Assembly: GCA_021498095.1 (NCBI GenBank)
Contig: JAIZWK010000001.1
Span: 990,001 to 1,022,000, forward strand
DNA length: 32,000 bases
Direction of reading: 5' to 3'
DNA from: Candidatus Harpocratesius repetitus
GTDB taxonomy: Archaea; Asgardarchaeota; Lokiarchaeia; Sigyniarchaeales; Promethearchaeaceae
In this document: in pieces, positions 3,195 to 21,926 of the stretch
Position numbering within the stretch: position 1 is the first letter of the stretch
How the letters are laid out: the number at the start of each line of letters is the position of its first letter
Notes under the pieces: generated by a model
Told to the model about the DNA's origin: nothing
What the model saw: the letters and a program-made list of their open reading frames with translations, nothing else
Database searches by the model: none
Position numbers and translations under genes: made by a program

Positions 3195-3202
3195 TTGGAT
3201 AT
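3195..3202. repeat. Target-site duplication TTGGATAT (left copy)
   Basis: Identical to 4759-4766 and directly abuts the TIR. Confidence 0.9.
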
Positions 3203-4758
3203 CATTTACTATGTAATTGATCCCTTTTCTTCTAATTAATTGTTGTGGATATAATCACCTCGTAATCTTTCCTCATTCTTCATGAATTTGTAGATAAATA
3301 TAATGGATACCTATGATTTGAGCACATTCCAAGAAATTCACATAATTCCAACTCATTTTCATGTGAATTGTTTTTCTTTATTACATAACGTTGTACTTGC
3401 CAAATATTGTACAAAAAGCACCGTGTACCCATTATATTGAGCCGACTATTCCGATCTTGAATCTTTTGAACAAGTCCTAATCGATTCATTTCACGAAATG
3501 CAATTTCAATATACCAACGTTGACGATAGAGATCTCGGATGTAAATTTCATTACCGTGTAAGGTAGAAACTCCAGATCTGGCTCCGAACATTACGATTAA
3601 GGGAAAGATACGATTAGTAGCGGTGTGAACATCAATCAATTTCTTCCGAAAATCAGAAATAATTTCGTTGAGTTTATATGTTCGTTTTGCAATTAATAGA
3701 AGATCGAAATTAATGAATGAAAACCCCTGATTCTTCACGTATTTTTCCTTCATTGTTCCTTTACAATACCTTTTTCCCTTTCCATTCAAGTAATTTAAAA
3801 TTTTTTGCTTAGTTTGAGCGCATTTTCTTCCCGGCATTATTAATGTTACTTGTTTTGCTTGAAAATATCTTAAAATTCGTTTACGATAAAATCCTCGGTC
3901 TAGAAGCAAATACTTAACTGTGAATCCATTTGAAATCAGAATATGATAAATTTCTTGAAATATGATAAGTTTATCTTGTCTTTTTTTGATCTTAAAATTT
4001 GCAAGCATTTGGTGAAGTTCTCCAGAAATAATAGAAAAACTAAGAGTCCGATGAACTGTTTTACCTATCTTTTTTCCAAAACAATATGGATCATCTATGT
4101 TTTTCTTACAAGGAACATCAGTATAATCCGCGATTAGTTTTAGGTCGGTACCAACAATGTTCAGAGATTTCAGAAGCAAAAGGTGGGCTAAAAGAACAGA
4201 ATTCCAAAATTCTTCAACTAAATCCAACTTTGATAGTGTTTGAAGACAACGGGAAAAAGCGGGTTGATCAGGGAAATATCTTCGTTGTTTTCCATTTGAA
4301 AAATTTGTAATTGAGTATGATTGAAATGAAATTTGGGCATGAAAACACTTTTCTTGTAAAATTTCAGCTGTATGATGTGGTGAAAGTCTTAAAATTTGCA
4401 TACAACATGCAAATAAAACGAAGATGGTGTAGGAAAATCCACTTCGTTTCTGAGGCAATTTTTGGGAAATCACAGGATCTATCACTTTCACAATATCTAA
4501 AAGTAACTGCGGATTAATTAGATCGGGAGTAATTTTTCCAATATCGGTGGCAGCCGATGGATTTCCCCTAAGATTTGTAGACATATCCAAGGGTAAGAAA
4601 GCTTAGCTTTTAAATTATTCCCTTTATCTCTTGAAATAATTATGTGTTTCTCCAATGAAATGAGATTGAAAGTGTATCAAAGAAGTTGAACAAGAAATCG
4701 GGTTTTATCATGATTTCAAGCTCAGAAAAGGCATAAAAAACCAATTACATTGTTAATG
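3203..4758 (-). mobile_element. Intact insertion sequence, IS4 superfamily (IS4/ISH3-like), 1556 bp
   Basis: 17-bp imperfect TIRs CATTTACTATGTAATTG (3203-3219) and CATTAACAATGTAATTG (revcomp of 4742-4758), matching at 15/17. 8-bp direct repeat TTGGATAT at 3195-3202 and 4759-4766. A DDE transposase lies inside. Confidence 0.92.
3280..4584 (-). CDS. DDE transposase, IS4 superfamily
   Basis: LIADYTD (D1), LLLDRGFY (D2), YRQRWYIEIAFR (Y-R-E motif). The ATG at 4584 is preferred over the TTG at 4590 because it aligns with the ATG of the second copy at 14835. Confidence 0.9.
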   Translation of the reverse strand: MSTNLRGNPSAATDIGKITPDLINPQLLLDIVKVIDPVISQKLPQKRSGFSYTIFVLFACCMQILRLSPHHTAEILQEKCFHAQISFQSYSITNFSNGKQRRYFPDQPAFSRCLQTLSKLDLVEEFWNSVLLAHLLLLKSLNIVGTDLKLIADYTDVPCKKNIDDPYCFGKKIGKTVHRTLSFSIISGELHQMLANFKIKKRQDKLIIFQEIYHILISNGFTVKYLLLDRGFYRKRILRYFQAKQVTLIMPGRKCAQTKQKILNYLNGKGKRYCKGTMKEKYVKNQGFSFINFDLLLIAKRTYKLNEIISDFRKKLIDVHTATNRIFPLIVMFGARSGVSTLHGNEIYIRDLYRQRWYIEIAFREMNRLGLVQKIQDRNSRLNIMGTRCFLYNIWQVQRYVIKKNNSHENELELCEFLGMCSNHRYPLYLSTNS

Positions 4759-4766
4759 TTGGATAT
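4759..4766. repeat. Target-site duplication TTGGATAT (right copy)
   Basis: Identical to 3195-3202 and directly abuts the TIR. Confidence 0.9.
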
Positions 4767-14421: not shown

Positions 14422-14660
14422 TTATGGAAAAAAAAAAATTTCTTCAATGATTTTGTTTTGAATATAGAGTGATAATTCTTCAATGAAATGAATATCATAT
14501 ATTTTTATATTTTTTTCTAAATTTTTGTAAATATATTTATGAATAGGATATAAATCTTGGTTGAGAATTACAATACAATTGTCCATATCGGTTTACTCTG
14601 TTTCTTCCCATGATAAATATGAACCATACATAATAACTCCCAAAATCGAATTTTTGTCTA
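14422..14660 (-). pseudogene. Minimal nucleotidyltransferase (MNT, Pol-beta superfamily) remnant
   Basis: The minus strand reads DKNSILGVIMYGSYLSWEETE*TDMDNCIVI...KIYDIHFIEELSLYIQNKIIEE. This is GS...DxD plus a third Asp, with a TAA at 14595-14593. The 5' end is cut by the IS TIR at 14661. Confidence 0.75.
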
Positions 14661-16076
14661 CATTATCAATGTAATTGGTTTTTTATAGATTTTCTGAGCT
14701 TGAAATCATGCTGAAGCTCAATTTTTTGTTTAAATCATATAGTACTTTCCAAATTTCTTTGCATTGAAGAAGTGCATAATTATCTCGAAAGATAAAGGGA
14801 ATAATTTAAAAGATAAGCTTTTTTACCCGTAAATATGTCGACAAATCTTCAGGAAAATCCATCGGTTGGGGCCGATATCGGACAAATTACTCCTAATCAG
14901 ATTAATCCGCAGTTACTTTTAGATATTGCGGAGGTCATAGATCCTGTGATTTCCCAAAAATTGCCTTTAAAACAAAGTGGGTTTTCCTATACGATCTTCG
15001 TTCTGTTTGCATGTTGTATGCAAATATTAAGACTTTCGCCCCGACACACATCAGAAGTTATTCAAAAAAAGTGTTCTCGTGCTCAAATTTCATTTCAATC
15101 CTACTCAGTTACCAAATTTTCAAATGGTAAACAACGGAGATTCTTCCCTGATGAACCTGCTTTTTCTCGATGTTTTCAAACCTTGTCTAAGTTAGATTTA
15201 GTTGAAGCATTTTGGAATTCTGTACTTTTGGCACATTTATTAATTCTCAAATCTCTAAAAATTGTAAGTTCAGATCTAAAGTTAATAGCAGATTACACCG
15301 ATACACCCTGTAAAAAAAATATGCAAGATCCATATTGTTTTGGAAAGAAAGAAGGTAAAACCGTTCATCGTACGCTTAGTTTTTCCGTTATTTCAGGTGA
15401 TTTTCATCATATGATTGCCAATTTTAAAATTAAAAAGCGTCAAGATAAACTTCCTTTGTTTCACAATGTCCATGAGATGCTAGTTTCTAACTGCTTTTCC
15501 ATAAAATATGTTATGCTTGACCGAGGGTTTTATCGTATATGAATACTAAAGTTCTTTTAGCAGAAACATGTGACCGTGATTATGCCTGGAAGAAAATGTG
15601 CGCAGACAAAACAAGAATTCATTCAAGATTTTAATCAAAATAAAATCCGTGAACAAATTACCAGCAGTCGAATATTTCCCCTAATTGATATGATCTGCTC
15701 AAAATCTGGCATAAGAACCCTACACGGCAATGAGAATTATATTCGAGATCTCTATCGCCGAAAATAGTTGATAGAAATTGCATTTCATGAAATGAATCGG
15801 TTAGGCATTGCACAAAAGGTGCAAGATCTCAATATTTGGCTGAATGTTATGTGAATTCGGTGCTTTTTGTACAATATATGGCAGACACAACGATTTCTAA
15901 TAAAAGAAACGATCCTACCGCAGCAGATTTAGAATTGAATTAATTTCTTGGAATGTGCTCAAATCATCGGTATCCATTATATATATCATCCATGAATTGG
16001 AAGGAGTAACATTATCATGGAGAAATGAATAGATTAATCCTATATAGAAGAAAAAGGATCAATTACATAGTGAATG
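14661..16076 (+). mobile_element. Decayed second IS copy of the same family, 1416 bp
   Basis: TIRs CATTATCAATGTAATTG (14661-14677) and CATTCACTATGTAATTG (revcomp of 16060-16076), matching at 14/17. The 5' leader and 3' trailer are homologous to 3203..4758. The flanks (TTTGTCTA / TATTATAT) are not a direct repeat. Confidence 0.88.
14835..16009 (+). pseudogene. IS4-superfamily transposase pseudogene
   Basis: Collinear with 3280..4584. It has stops at 15540-42, shortly after that, and at 15765-67, a further stop and a frameshift near the 3' end, and an in-frame loss of ~46 codons (QTKQ joined to EFIQDF). Confidence 0.9.
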
Positions 16077-16413
16077 TATTATATATACCTAAAATTTCTG
16101 CGTTTCTCGCACTGGATTCTTTAGGTTTCTTCAATTTAGAATATCATAGCTCTTAATAAGCTAGCTAGTTTTAATGATTTATGCATTCTCTATTTTTCCA
16201 ATAAAAATTAATGCATTTCAGCAAAATAGAACATTATTACTTCTTAATAATGATTATGGAGTATATTTTATACTGATATTTACTTATATATTTAAAGAAA
16301 GAATTATATTGAAGAAGATCAATAAATACATGATCAGTGGGAAGAAACACATAAAAATATAAATTTCCACTTTTTCCAAAAAATGATGTTTCATACCATT
16401 AGAGTGATTTACA

Positions 16414-16818
16414 ATGAGTTATAAAATTGAAGAACTTGAAGGAATCGGACCAAAATATGCCGAAGCTTTGAAAAAAATCGGGATTACAAAAACCGATGAG
16501 CTGCTTAAAATAAAGCAAAAAGATGTCGCAGATGTTGCCAAGAAAATCAATGTTCCAAAGAAAAATTTAGATAAATGGATAGAAATTGCGGATCTTATGC
16601 GCATTAAAGGTGTTGCGGAAGAATATAGCGAAGCACTTAATCGTATTGGAATTGATTCAGTGAAGGAATTTAAACATCGAAATGCAGCAAATACATTAAC
16701 CAAGTTAGAAGAATTAAATAGAAAATTCCCTGATATATTACGGAAACTTCCTAACATAGATATGATTAAGGAATGGATTTCTGAAGCGAAAAAACTTCCA
16801 GATCTTGATATTAACTAA
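16414..16818 (+). CDS. DUF4332 family helix-hairpin-helix protein
   Basis: IEELEGIGPKYAEAL and ADLMRIKGVAEEYSEAL HhH repeats; ends LPNIDMIKEWISEAKKLP. Confidence 0.85.
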   Translation: MSYKIEELEGIGPKYAEALKKIGITKTDELLKIKQKDVADVAKKINVPKKNLDKWIEIADLMRIKGVAEEYSEALNRIGIDSVKEFKHRNAANTLTKLEELNRKFPDILRKLPNIDMIKEWISEAKKLPDLDIN

Positions 16819-16845
16819 AGTTCTGGATTTTTTAGATATTTTAGA

Positions 16846-16865
16846 TTTTTTCTTCTTTATTTTTT
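16846..16865 (+). terminator. T-rich tract after the DUF4332 gene, immediately before the intron 5' end
   Basis: TTTTTTCTTCTTTATTTTTT directly precedes GTGCG at 16866. Confidence 0.35.
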
Positions 16866-17680
16866 GTGCGACAGAGTTAAGCTTAGTGGCAAAATTTCAT
16901 ATAATTGGACCGTCTTTTCAGGGGACGCGTGGGACTCATGGCGACTTCAGTTCCAATGATTGGGGCTCGAAAGCATCCATGAGAATGTACCGAAACCATC
17001 AACTCTCGATTGGTGTAGGGCTACCCAGTAAAATTCCATGGCGAATTAGCATGAACTCATGATTGAAGCTTCGTGAATTATACGCTACGAAAGGAGAGTT
17101 GATGTCTATTAGACGACGCAGCCGGACCAAACAGGCAAAAGCGTTAGGAACACATGGTGGAAAATCGTGTGTAACACCTGAACAAATAACGCTCGGAGTA
17201 AAGCGAGCGCCTACCGAATTTGTTATACGTTTACCATTAAGAACTCTGGAAACCTTCATCCCTGCTTGTGGCGAGATGAAGGGTGAGATTGGGAAAAAGC
17301 GAATGCCCCGAGTAATGTTGGGGATAGACCTATTGGTCAATCCGAAAGGATGCCCACTTCTCATGGCTCTACTTGAATTGGACGTATAGGAGACTTCTCC
17401 ATGACCGACATTTGCGAGACGAATCAACCCGTGCAAGGTAGTCAACACCACCAGCATGCCGATATTACATGGATTTTCATGAATCGTGAAGCTGCAAAAC
17501 GTGGTGTGAAGAAGCTCTAACAACAGATATTTCAAGCAACTCGTGATAAAAACTTCCATACGGCTCGCCGACTTAAGAAGCTCTTATTTAAATCATTAAA
17601 TGCAAGATTTCTTGCCGTCCTTACAGTTACGTCCAACCAAGGTCGGTATACTCCAGGTGTTGATGGAATTATTCTTAGCA
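16866..17680 (+). mobile_element. 5'-portion of a group II intron (ribozyme domains I-III and start of domain IV), 3'-truncated
   Basis: Starts with the canonical GTGCG exactly where the DNA becomes GC-richer. Hairpins: CGCTCG/CGAGCG 17190-17209, CCTTCATC/GATGAAGG 17253-17282, GACC-TATT-GGTC 17327-17338, TCC-GAAA-GGA 17341-17350. An RT N-terminus follows. No domain V was seen. The 3' boundary is approximate. Confidence 0.85.
17401..17680 (+). pseudogene. Group II intron-encoded RT/maturase, N-terminal (RVT_N/RT0) fragment
   Basis: AGGAG then ATG at 17401: ...ITWIFMNREAAKRGVKKL*QQIFQATRDKNFHTARRLKKLLFKSLNARFLAVLTVTSNQGRYTPGVDG. This matches the RVT_N pattern (KLQxRIF...ARRLQxLL...AVxxVT...TPGVDG). 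TAA at 17518-17520 stands where Gln is expected. Confidence 0.9.
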
Positions 17681-17870
17681 ATTACATCTTTTTCTTTTTT
17701 TTTAATAATTATTAAAAAATTCTATAAATGGATTCAAAATATTATATTTATTTATCGGTCTTAATTTTTTTAACTATTTTTTTTTTCAAATAAGATGGAT
17801 TTCTTTTATAATTGACTTTATTGGATATATAATTATATCTTTTGCTGGATTTCATATTTTTGGTATATTT

Positions 17871-18386
17871 ATGAATGAAAAATTAGAACAAAAAAAAAGA
17901 ATGAAAATATTAAACTTAAAATATATGATGACTTTTTTAATATTTGCAATTATATCTGATATTTTCATTCCATCTGTAAGATTTGGCATAAATATTTCAT
18001 ACGTTCTTTTATCATTGTCTACAAATATCTTCTTTTTAACAATGCTTTTTTCTTTTTATGAATTAGGTTATGAAAATAGGTTTGTTGAAGAGATTGGAAA
18101 AAATACATTGATTTTATTTATTTTTTCTATATTATTTGATAAATATATAACCATAATTTGGAAAGACTTAAATTTCCTTCAAATGAACAAAGATCCAAAA
18201 TTGTATTACAAAAATTTATTACCCGCTTTTCAAATCTTAATCGTATTAGTGCTAAAAATTGTATTGCTATTGATTATTTTTTATTTATCACAAAAATTTC
18301 CAGTCTTAACTAAAAAGATCAAGAAAAGAATCCAAAATGAAAATCAGAATATTACTACGCTTTCGCAATCAAAAGTATCCTTATAA
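17871..18386 (+). CDS. Hypothetical integral membrane protein (~4 TM)
   Basis: 171-aa ORF with four hydrophobic segments; it overlaps the permease start by 50 nt. Confidence 0.6.
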   Translation: MNEKLEQKKRMKILNLKYMMTFLIFAIISDIFIPSVRFGINISYVLLSLSTNIFFLTMLFSFYELGYENRFVEEIGKNTLILFIFSILFDKYITIIWKDLNFLQMNKDPKLYYKNLLPAFQILIVLVLKIVLLLIIFYLSQKFPVLTKKIKKRIQNENQNITTLSQSKVSL

Positions 18387-21063
18387 AAAGTCAATTATTG
18401 TGTTATCAATTTTAGTCAGCATTATTATTGGTGCGTATTCGGGATTTTCTTCATTAATGGAAAATGAAATGGGAGAAATTTCAGCTGATTTTGGTCCACA
18501 CTATTCTATTTTTGATATGGATTTACAAGAAGTCAATTCCATTCAATCTGGAAGAATAATTCAAGAATATGATTATCTTCTTGACTCATTTTCTCCCATC
18601 ATTCATACTTCGGTGAACACCTCTCATGATGGATTAAGTTTTAATAGAACTTATATAAAAGGACTCGACTTTAATTATTTTCAAACAATCAATTATTGGT
18701 ACAATATTGAATATGCCGAGAGTATTACAAAAAATAATCTACCATCAAATTGGGTAATTTTAAGTGAATATACCGCAGATATAAACAATGTATCGAATGG
18801 GGAAGATTTTAATTTAGAAATATTAGGAAGTAATACAAACATTACACAAATAGAATCGTTTCATGTGATTGGTATTATTAAAAATTTTACAAATAATCTT
18901 GAAAGAGTGCTTAAATTTCCTGGAATGTTCGGAACATACGAGTTCATTCAGAAAGGATCAATTTCTTTAACTTTTCGGCCATCCGCGCAGATAAATTTCA
19001 TGATTGGTAATTTTTCTAAATTCACAGATTTATTTGGTTCCCTTTCATCTACATCTTATTCTTTCCATTTTAATTTCAAATTTGATGCAAATTTAAATAC
19101 TTTAGACATGCAAAAAAGCAATATTGATCGTTTCCAACAGGTTCTTGAGATGAACTTAAATCCCCTTAAAAATCATTATATTAAAGCTGATTTTTACGAT
19201 TTTCTGGAAAAGACTATTATAAATAGAAATGTATTGATTAACAATATGCTTGAAGTGAGCATTCCCTTGATTTTAATTGCTGCAATTATTGTTGGAATCG
19301 ATTTTCTTAATCAGAGAAAAAATTCTATTGCTATTGAAGAATTGAAGCAATATTTGGGGTTTTCAAGGTTAAATAATACTGCAGAAATTCTAATTAATGC
19401 ATTTATTTCCCTTATAATCATTTTTATCTTAAGTATAATTTTTTCATTTATTACAACGGGAATATCGGGTTTTTTCTTAGTTCAAATTTTGATTTTACCT
19501 CGAATCTTACCTGTTAACGATATATTATGGATCGCTTTACTGATTTTTTGCTATCTCGTTTCTTTGGAATTCTTTGTTCTTTTTATCCGAAATTCTTCTT
19601 TAAAAAAGAATAGGAAATTATCCTTGTTTATCAATTTACTCTTATTTTTATTTATCATTTTATCAATTATTTTACCCTTAACAAGGAATTTTCAGCAAAA
19701 TTCAGAAATTATTTTTATTAATTCTTTTAAAACAACGATTTTATTTAGTTCTATTTTTTTATCTGCTTTTATTATTCCAGTGGGCTATAATATATTTGGG
19801 CTTTTATTTCAAGAAAGCCGAAATTTTCAATTTTCTAATAAACTTGGAAAATGGATTTCAGAAAAATTAAATCTGAGATACTTGAAATATAAAATAAGTT
19901 ATTTTCGAGAAAACTATAATAATTTTTATATTTCTATTATAACAATTGCCTTTATCAGCAGTTTCTTTTATAATAGTATCTTAATCTCCACTAATCTTCA
20001 ATACTTTTTAAATTTTGCCCAAACCTTCGATTTTGCTGGTGAATATCGAATTGAAAATGATATTGATTTAACGTTAGAGAATTCTATCCCTCTTGAAATT
20101 TCGGATAATTTTCAGCAAAATTTACGAAATATTACAGAAATTGAGTTATTTTCCCCGAATTTTCATAATTATGAATCTGTTTTTATTTATGTCATAGATC
20201 CTAGTGAATGGGAAGATTTGAGAGAAAATAGTGATACATCATATTATTGGAATATTATTCAAAGTCTTCAGAATTCAGATAGTGATGTAATTGCATCTGA
20301 AAAATTATTTCATGATATTGAATTACAAGAGAAGGATACTTTGGATCTTACTGTCACTGATAATAAGACTGTTACTTTCAATATGGGTGAACATTTAAAT
20401 TTATTTCCTGGAATAAATATTGTCAATTCCTATTCAATTATCATGAGTTATTCACAATTTTCTGAAATTAAAACGGACATTATGCGATTCACCCAGGTTT
20501 TAATTTTCCACGATTGTTCTCCCCAATTAGAAGAATATTTAGAAAAAATTGCACGTGAAAATATCCAAAATTACTCGTTTACTTTTATATCATTCCAAGA
20601 TATTGTGAATAATTCATTCAATCCTCTTCTATCTATTTCAAACTTCTTTATTAGATTAAAAATTCAATATTTAATTGGAATTTATTCTGTTACATTTCTG
20701 TTTGTATTATTTTTTATTGATTTGAGGATTGTTATTGAAAAAAATAAACGTGTCTATAGAAAATTTGTTCAAAAAGGTTTTTCTCTTAAAATAATTCAAA
20801 AATTCGATCTTTTTGCCTTTAGTTCATCGATACTTTTGGGTTTAATATTAGGCTTATTAGGTATCTTAGTATTTTATTCTCAATATGTAATTCAACAAAA
20901 ATCAAGTTTTTATTACTTAAATTCTTTAAATCTTACTTTTTTCAATTTTCCATGGCAAATTTTTGGAATATGTTTTGTTTCACTTGCATTCCTTATTTTT
21001 TTGGTAATTTACTTGATGATAAAATTCAACATATCAAAGAAAATATTCAAGAATGGCGATTGA
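18337..21063 (+). CDS. FtsX/MacB-like ABC transporter permease (two-repeat architecture)
   Basis: TM, large extracellular domain, then a TM cluster, repeated twice; lies directly upstream of a LolD-like ATPase. Confidence 0.75.
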   Translation: MKIRILLRFRNQKYPYKKSIIVLSILVSIIIGAYSGFSSLMENEMGEISADFGPHYSIFDMDLQEVNSIQSGRIIQEYDYLLDSFSPIIHTSVNTSHDGLSFNRTYIKGLDFNYFQTINYWYNIEYAESITKNNLPSNWVILSEYTADINNVSNGEDFNLEILGSNTNITQIESFHVIGIIKNFTNNLERVLKFPGMFGTYEFIQKGSISLTFRPSAQINFMIGNFSKFTDLFGSLSSTSYSFHFNFKFDANLNTLDMQKSNIDRFQQVLEMNLNPLKNHYIKADFYDFLEKTIINRNVLINNMLEVSIPLILIAAIIVGIDFLNQRKNSIAIEELKQYLGFSRLNNTAEILINAFISLIIIFILSIIFSFITTGISGFFLVQILILPRILPVNDILWIALLIFCYLVSLEFFVLFIRNSSLKKNRKLSLFINLLLFLFIILSIILPLTRNFQQNSEIIFINSFKTTILFSSIFLSAFIIPVGYNIFGLLFQESRNFQFSNKLGKWISEKLNLRYLKYKISYFRENYNNFYISIITIAFISSFFYNSILISTNLQYFLNFAQTFDFAGEYRIENDIDLTLENSIPLEISDNFQQNLRNITEIELFSPNFHNYESVFIYVIDPSEWEDLRENSDTSYYWNIIQSLQNSDSDVIASEKLFHDIELQEKDTLDLTVTDNKTVTFNMGEHLNLFPGINIVNSYSIIMSYSQFSEIKTDIMRFTQVLIFHDCSPQLEEYLEKIARENIQNYSFTFISFQDIVNNSFNPLLSISNFFIRLKIQYLIGIYSVTFLFVLFFIDLRIVIEKNKRVYRKFVQKGFSLKIIQKFDLFAFSSSILLGLILGLLGILVFYSQYVIQQKSSFYYLNSLNLTFFNFPWQIFGICFVSLAFLIFLVIYLMIKFNISKKIFKNGD

Positions 21064-21065
21064 TA

Positions 21066-21926
21066 ATGAATGGCCTGCAAATAAAAAATGTCTTTTTCAT
21101 TTATAAAACCAAATATATTGACGTTGTTGCCTTAAAAGGTGTAAATATGACACTTTCCCCTGGAGAAATTACAGTCATCATGGGACCTTCGGGTAGTGGA
21201 AAAACCACCTTATTAAATTTACTAAATGGAGAAATAAGACCTTCTTCTGGGCAGATAATATATAATGATCAAATTTATGAAAATTTTTCCTTTAGGGATA
21301 TTCAGAATTTTCGAAAAACTAAAATTGGATACATGAGACAGAAAGAAAATTTATTTAATTTCTTGACAATTAATGATAATTTCCAATTAATCGCTGATTT
21401 AATTCATCGAAAGATTTCGAAGGAAGAAATAATTGAGCATTTACAAAAATTTGATCTGGGAGAAAAAATCAATGTATTTCCTGATCAATTAAGCCAAGGA
21501 CAACAGCAAAAAATTGCATTCCTTTCAATCTTAATAAAAAAACCTGAAATTATATTATTTGATGAACCCACAGGGAATTTAGATGCAGAATCAAGAGATG
21601 ATTTTATTAGAATGATTGAAAATTATAAAGAACAGGATAATGATACAATATTTGTAATAGTGACTCATGATCCTGCATTTATTGCGATCGCAGATCGAGT
21701 TTATTTTCTGAAAAATGGAAAAGTTGATACACATCTTGATAAAGCTGAAATTATTATGAATAAAACTATAAATCTTGAAAAAAATATTCCTAATTTTGGT
21801 GTAAATGCCTTTAATTTAACGATATCAAAAGAAGATTTATCTAGAATCGAAACTTCAATAGAAGTTATCCAAAATTTCCTTAGAAAACTTGAAAAAAAAC
21901 ATATGAAAAACCCAGAATCTACTTAA
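21066..21926 (+). CDS. ABC transporter ATP-binding protein (LolD/MacB-like)
   Basis: VVALKGVNM, GPSGSGKT, LSQGQQQK, ILFDEPTGNLD, VTHD. The ATG at 21066 (2 nt after the permease stop) is preferred over the track start at 20952. Confidence 0.92.
   Translation: MNGLQIKNVFFIYKTKYIDVVALKGVNMTLSPGEITVIMGPSGSGKTTLLNLLNGEIRPSSGQIIYNDQIYENFSFRDIQNFRKTKIGYMRQKENLFNFLTINDNFQLIADLIHRKISKEEIIEHLQKFDLGEKINVFPDQLSQGQQQKIAFLSILIKKPEIILFDEPTGNLDAESRDDFIRMIENYKEQDNDTIFVIVTHDPAFIAIADRVYFLKNGKVDTHLDKAEIIMNKTINLEKNIPNFGVNAFNLTISKEDLSRIETSIEVIQNFLRKLEKKHMKNPEST

Follow-up and report, generated by a model that had tools for sequence, protein, structure and literature searches.

Several IEP types occur in Asgard archaea, among them 'a separate CL type' (Vosseberg et al., 2023, PMC9887622), and group II introns have been described in Asgard genomes including those of Lokiarchaeia (bioRxiv 10.1101/2024.12.10.627823). 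Both studies are surveys of maturase proteins, and the locus described here, truncated copies, and target sites do not appear in them. The best solved relative of the reverse transcriptase (RT) considered here is that of T.el4h, a CL-type IIB1 intron of Thermosynechococcus (PDB 6ME0, 6MEC, 8FLI), which agrees with the CL-like protein that a first-pass annotation made from the letters of this DNA had suggested. The two share the RVT_N/RT0 extension; they differ in sequence (~40% identity), in the archaeal host of our element, and in the loss of everything past RT0 from the copy under study, and the IIB class is here assigned from the protein rather than from IIB RNA hallmarks.

Group II introns commonly end up as truncated, non-functional copies that lie between genes next to other mobile elements. 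Dai and Zimmerly reportedly described fragmented group II introns in bacterial genomes in 2002, and the copy described here has met the same fate, except that its host is an archaeon and its 5' junction is fixed by an empty site in sister genomes. In the same year Ichiyanagi et al. are said to have found ectopic retrotransposition of Ll.LtrB into sites that match IBS1 and only poorly IBS2; the site studied here resembles these in its IBS1 match and poor IBS2, a likeness judged from duplex energies only. The introns of Methanosarcina acetivorans, according to what Dai and Zimmerly are said to have reported in 2003, are endonuclease-less, home into repeated or mobile DNA, and have ORF-less derivatives. 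Our family is likewise archaeal and endonuclease-less, targets repeats or mobile DNA and not housekeeping genes, and has an ORF-less relative (~740 nt, in genome G020), but it belongs to a different RT lineage and the copy under study is not nested in another intron.

The window, by which we mean the whole analysed stretch of 32,000 nucleotides (G000:C1:990001-1022000), comes from a single-contig genome of 4.36 Mb and 31% GC, here called G000. The Asgard host proposed as a possibility in the first-pass annotation is borne out by four bona fide actin matches in the genome, the best scoring 435.7 bits over the full Pfam model. The element at window positions 16866-17677 (plus strand) is a fragment of a group II intron and not a complete member, as the annotation had held in calling it a dead remnant: it equals intron nucleotides 1-812 of ~2163, and a BLAST search of its own genome gives 98.3% identity to G000:700165-700976 and 92% to G000:1130072-1130881. 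With domains V and VI, the 3' splice site, and the catalytic part of the RT all missing, the fragment is capable of neither splicing nor mobility. Very probably it is an inert copy of a CL/IIB-type, endonuclease-less intron family in a Loki-type Asgard genome, brought to its present form by a later deletion of its 3' part. Its GC content is 38-47% across the ~810-nt intron piece and 45-47% over 16900-17500, against 16-33% in the flanks. The features of the fragment are as follows.

16866-17677, plus strand: 3'-truncated group II intron copy, identified by identity to sister copies.
16866-17248, plus strand: GTGCG 5' end and domain I, with a closing stem of 16871-16889 paired to 17234-17248 and showing compensatory changes.
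17253-17282, plus strand: domain II hairpin, from the fold and the consensus fold.
17285-17362, plus strand: domain III, from the fold and the consensus fold.
17363-17677, plus strand: 5' part of domain IV, containing a GGAG/CUCC hairpin.
17389-17400, plus strand: the GGAG/CUCC hairpin, covering an SD-like AGGAG just ahead of an ATG.
17401-17677, plus strand: RT remnant of 92 codons, RT0/RVT_N only (RVT_N E 7e-18), which ends two codons past TPGVDG.
17518-17520, plus strand: nonsense codon TAA, from CAA, which is retained in both sister copies.
17677-17678, no strand: truncation junction, where intron homology stops and unique, very AT-rich DNA begins.

Four loci of the family, the window copy included, are found by BLAST against the G000 genome. 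The full-length relatives that had been predicted to exist elsewhere in the genome are two of them, each with domain V/VI, and the three loci besides the window copy are these.

G000:700165-702327: full-length copy of ~2163 nt, 98.3% identical to the window copy over nucleotides 1-812.
G000:1130071-1132207: full-length but decayed copy, 92% identical.
G000:343873-344017 (L004/L007): internal scrap of domain I, 145 nt, truncated on both sides, 85% identical.

The Rfam Intron_gpII model (domain V/VI) scores 54.8 bits in the 700165 copy and 51.2 bits in the decayed copy. Read through its lone in-frame stop, which follows codon 405, the ORF of the 700165 copy encodes RVT_N, RVT_1, and GIIM with a YADD motif, and Pfam finds no HNH endonuclease domain in the protein. 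In the decayed copy the reading frame is broken at several places, and none of the loci found in G000 by tblastn with the family RT holds an intact RT gene. At G000:786237-787412 lies what is left of an RT from another group II family (34-53% identity); it is frameshifted and has a domain V/VI match of its own at 787336-787412 (42.7 bits). The 3' flank of the 700165 copy (G000:702650-703540) contains two abundant MITE-like repeat families, the first ~550 nt long and present more than 25 times (82-92% identity), the second ~300 nt long and present at least 15 times (91-97% identity), and the G000 genome is densely seeded with short repeats.

With the 92% copy as outgroup, substitutions polarised over the 812 nt number 7 specific to the window copy, 7 specific to the full-length copy, and 65 specific to the decayed copy; the private changes include CAA to TAA at 17518 in the window copy and PGVDG to PDVDG in the 700165 copy. 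The 7 private substitutions mark the window copy as a distinct locus and so argue against an assembly artefact, in which an assembler would have left a 2.1-kb repeat in mid-intron. The intron is multi-copy at 92-98% identity in a single-contig assembly, a setting in which such an error could arise, but a repeat misjoin normally exits at the end of the repeat into the flank of another copy, not at nucleotide 812 into unique DNA, and the sole N run in the genome lies at 4.23 Mb, 3.2 Mb away. We consider misassembly highly improbable.

At its 5' end the window copy has the GTGCG noted in the first-pass annotation (16866-16870), which agrees with the group II 5' boundary consensus GUGYG. The GC-richer, hairpin-dense part that was estimated there at ~530 nt measures 535 nt, and its predicted fold is more stable than all 100 of 100 dinucleotide shuffles (z = -3.55). 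In a consensus fold of domains I-III, 59 of 125 consensus pairs show compensatory changes in one or more members of an alignment of five (the three G000 copies, a relative from G020 (L009), and a full-length relative from G002 (L011)), although the effective sample is small since three of the five are near-identical copies; the helices of domains I-III covary with the diverged G020 and G002 relatives. The AGGAG and ATG that had been pointed out lie at 17388-17392 and 17401. The hairpin at 17389-17400 that covers the AGGAG may have a role there, one suggested by the modelled fold. Two other open frames in the RNA part, of 108 aa (17063-17389, plus strand) and 186 aa (16999-17559, minus strand), were rejected as chance frames in GC-richer DNA, with no Pfam match or broken in the decayed copy.

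Rfam searches add little on the RNA of the fragment itself. At the gathering threshold no Rfam family matches anywhere in the window, domain V included, and at E values up to 10 over 16700-17900 only chance miRNA and snoRNA matches appear, with no group II model among them. Even the full-length copy gives no match to the group-II-D1D4 models when E values up to 1 are allowed; since they miss a copy whose domain V/VI Rfam recognises, their silence on the window says little, and these models evidently do not cover this intron lineage. Of the two observations named in the first-pass annotation as speaking against a group II intron, the lack of a covariance-model match is therefore uninformative, and the failure of the peptide to match RVT_N is not what we find.

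The RT remnant is indeed a recognisable RT N-terminus with a single nonsense codon. As CAA is present in both sister copies, the TAA substitution is private to the window copy. Reading through it reaches the TPGVDG codons at 17650-17667, and the last base homologous to the full-length sister is 17677, 10 bases beyond; the homology is thus lost just after TPGVDG, as had been observed, although the element's end was given as 17680. The stub is 95.7% identical to the full copy in amino acids and aligns to residues 19-89 of the T.el4h RT (PDB 6ME0) at E 1.6e-6. It holds RVT_N (RT0) alone, and the set of RT0-7 and maturase (X) is not present.

For the class of the protein the full-length family RT is more informative. 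It aligns to the T.el4h RT over residues 20-460 (E 1.8e-80, 274 bits, ~40% identity), whereas LtrA (ML) and IIC RTs reach E 3e-34 or weaker and at most 122 bits; on these scores against solved relatives, which stand in place of a class-labelled reference tree, the IEP appears to sort with the CL class rather than with ML or C. Cyanobacteria supply its nearest genomic relatives (39-41% identity), and relatives from the same order are 41-57% identical to the G000 RT. A quick tree places the G000 RT in one clade (SH-aLRT 99) with those of four genomes of its order, G002, G019, G022, and G013. The clade itself is nested within bacterial relatives, cyanobacterial and planctomycete ones included, none of them above 41% identity. 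One of its members, in the same-genus genome G002 (L011, G002:C18, 999-2531, minus strand), has an open RT-maturase frame of 510 aa that is 57% identical to the G000 protein, and judging from this frame it is possibly still active. The ORF-less derivative in G020 (L009, G020:C252, 1272-2010, minus strand; ~740 nt) is of the same intron lineage and has domains I-III (69% identity) joined to domains V-VI, almost without domain IV. Given the published IEP types, the family is neither rare nor new for Asgard archaea, and the window fragment is an ordinary relic of it.

The site into which this copy went is intergenic, behind a T-rich tract, as the first-pass annotation had it: the intron lies after a T-run, 47 nt past the stop codon of a gene on the same strand.

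16414-16818, plus strand: DUF4332/helix-hairpin-helix protein of 134 aa (Pfam DUF4332, E 1.6e-29).

An intron-less version of this region is found in a contig of G007 (L021; G007:C288), which is 90% identical over window 16278-16865 and past base 16865 runs into unrelated T-rich DNA. Since this homology ends at 16865, the 5' junction of the intron is fixed to the base. A second intron-less contig, from G012 (L022; G012:C39), matches window 16278-16842, and G007 and G012 have in common a downstream segment that is absent from G000.

The islet of ~590 nt at 16278-16865, made up of the DUF4332 gene and short flanks, is the only part of the window common to G007:C288 and G012:C39. Both contigs are binned to a different genus and both flanks of the islet are unrelated, while genomes of the same genus as G000 lack it at the DNA level; at 90% identity, this suggests that a small cassette was transferred recently or that the contigs are mis-binned. 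Other mobile DNA lies nearby. An IS element of ~1.45 kb occupies window 14650-16095 (plus strand) and has roughly ten genomic copies at 86-88% identity; this copy, which adjoins the intron fragment, has a broken transposase (a 235-aa ORF and pieces, with no Pfam match), and in a 79%-identical copy at window ~3200-4760 (minus strand) an ORF of 436 aa encodes a DDE_Tnp_1 (IS4-like) domain.

The position of the stump also bears on whether it could have been co-opted, as a structured 3' UTR, a small RNA, or the source of a short RVT_N peptide. Its sense orientation behind DUF4332 makes read-through transcription plausible, and the fold of domains I-III is stable. Yet the stump is absent from the G007 and G012 contigs that carry the same gene, its peptide frame is interrupted by a stop, and its private changes are as many as those of the decaying full-length copy. 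Co-option is in our estimation extremely improbable, and the 7 private substitutions, the same number as in the full-length copy, would fit a stump that has drifted neutrally since it was formed.

How the copy lost its 3' part can be approached from the DNA that now follows it. Window 17678-21100 is unique in the genome and gives only chance-level matches at the DNA level in five related genomes. The downstream region differs among all genomes compared, the ~590-nt islet being all that G000 shares with G007 and G012. Neither blastn nor tblastx nor a search with a degenerate pattern finds the G007-type downstream flank in G000, and BLAST finds no separate piece of intron nucleotides 813-2163 in the genome beyond the two full-length copies. 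GC content falls to 16-24% over window 17700-18400 and 18337-21063, and this AT-rich DNA encodes multi-pass membrane proteins of 171 aa and 908 aa for which Pfam gives nothing significant, and an ABC ATPase comes next at 20952-21926; from its sequence, and with no DNA homologue in five relatives, the AT-rich block past the intron looks like a lineage-specific transporter block.

We propose that the history of the fragment had two steps. First, the intron RNA would have reverse-spliced into an off-target T-run behind the DUF4332 gene. Second, a later deletion or rearrangement would have taken intron nucleotides 813-2163, 1.35 kb at the 3' end, and with them the flank that originally lay downstream. 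The order in this proposal, with whole insertion preceding deletion, is inferred. Alternatively, the truncation could have happened during insertion, through aberrant retrotransposition that fixed nucleotides 1-812 only, for example because the cDNA was primed within domain IV or the intron RNA was degraded. The family IEP has no endonuclease domain, endonuclease-less introns depend for priming on DNA ends from the host, which can be irregular, and the site is off-target, ahead of a downstream region that differs among the genomes compared, all of which would suit such an event. However, the downstream segment of the G007/G012 type is missing too, which points to a loss of DNA that reaches beyond the intron. 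Abortive target-primed reverse transcription, moreover, begins at the 3' end of the intron and leaves copies that lack 5' rather than 3' sequence, which makes truncation at insertion less likely, and we give this alternative a distinctly low probability.

A break within domain IV with domains I-III structurally intact also recalls the known organellar split introns, which break in domain IV, and the stump could in principle be the 5' half of a trans-splicing intron whose 3' half lies elsewhere. The genome, though, has no separate 3' half: none of its six domain V matches is an orphan domain V of this family, and all six lie in other complete or decayed introns. The 5' exon is moreover non-coding, lying 47 nt past a stop codon, and the RT stub carries a nonsense codon. 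A split intron is largely refuted by these observations and is very improbable. Insertion of a whole intron followed by deletion remains the history that we favour.

The choice of site can be considered through the pairing between the intron RNA and its 5' exon, which involves the following elements.

17070-17091, plus strand: EBS2 hairpin, with loop core AAUUAUAC at 17076-17083, complementary to GUAUAAUU.
17151-17171, plus strand: EBS1 hairpin, with loop GUGGAAAAU at 17157-17165; its stem covaries in G020 and G002.
16859-16865, plus strand: IBS1-like 5' exon end, A and six T, which pairs with the EBS1 loop and lies inside the T-rich terminator-like tract.

The homing site of both full-length copies is the beginning of a repeat of ~250 nt, which matches EBS1 and EBS2 alike, offering a T9 run as IBS1 with GTATAA ahead of it as IBS2; GUAUAAUU occupies positions -15 to -8 of this target repeat, that is, of the full copy's 5' exon, and pairs with EBS2. 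Intron-less copies of the repeat are found at G000:88490, 1799035, and 3383908, and an occupied example is G000:702323-702575 (L005). The pairing assignments agree with changes in related introns, as the EBS1 loop of the G002 intron (CUUUUU) matches its own 5' exon end (AAAAAG) and the EBS2 loops of the G020 and G008 introns change along with their own exons.

At the full copy, and likewise at one empty repeat, the EBS2-IBS2 duplex has an energy of -7.1 kcal/mol, in the first percentile among 6001 T6 sites of the genome. For the window copy's own exon it is -0.7 kcal/mol, weaker than the background median of -2.0. EBS1 pairing at the window site equals that at the repeat but is weak, being built entirely of A-U and G-U pairs, and with 20,634 runs of at least six T in the genome IBS1 alone does not explain the choice of site. 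Since EBS1 is paired and EBS2 is unpaired at the window exon, the site is an off-target, IBS1-only one, and the insertion was most likely off-target, as far as these duplex energies tell.

Each of the three G000 copies is in sense orientation behind a gene (DUF4332, uL23, or an ABC-2 permease), 35-47 nt from its stop codon. The EBS1 loop of the family (GGAAAA) is complementary to oligo-T tracts, and oligo-T tracts are archaeal transcription terminators. An EBS1 that reads oligo-T might therefore give the family a terminator-proximal habit, and the stump would then be a product of terminator-proximal, IBS1-only spread instead of a random off-target event. We regard this as unlikely. If true, archaea would have in this habit a sequence-based parallel to the way in which class C introns of bacteria target terminators.

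In itself the fragment matters little, being one more decayed retroelement, and since Asgard CL-type introns have already been published, the question of eukaryogenesis gains little from a dead fragment. The combination of an empty site, an off-target 5' exon, and a clean truncation nonetheless makes it a dated record of a CL-type family that moved recently and is now dying in this genome. While it opens no new question, this record bears on how archaeal relatives of eukaryotes keep their intron load low.
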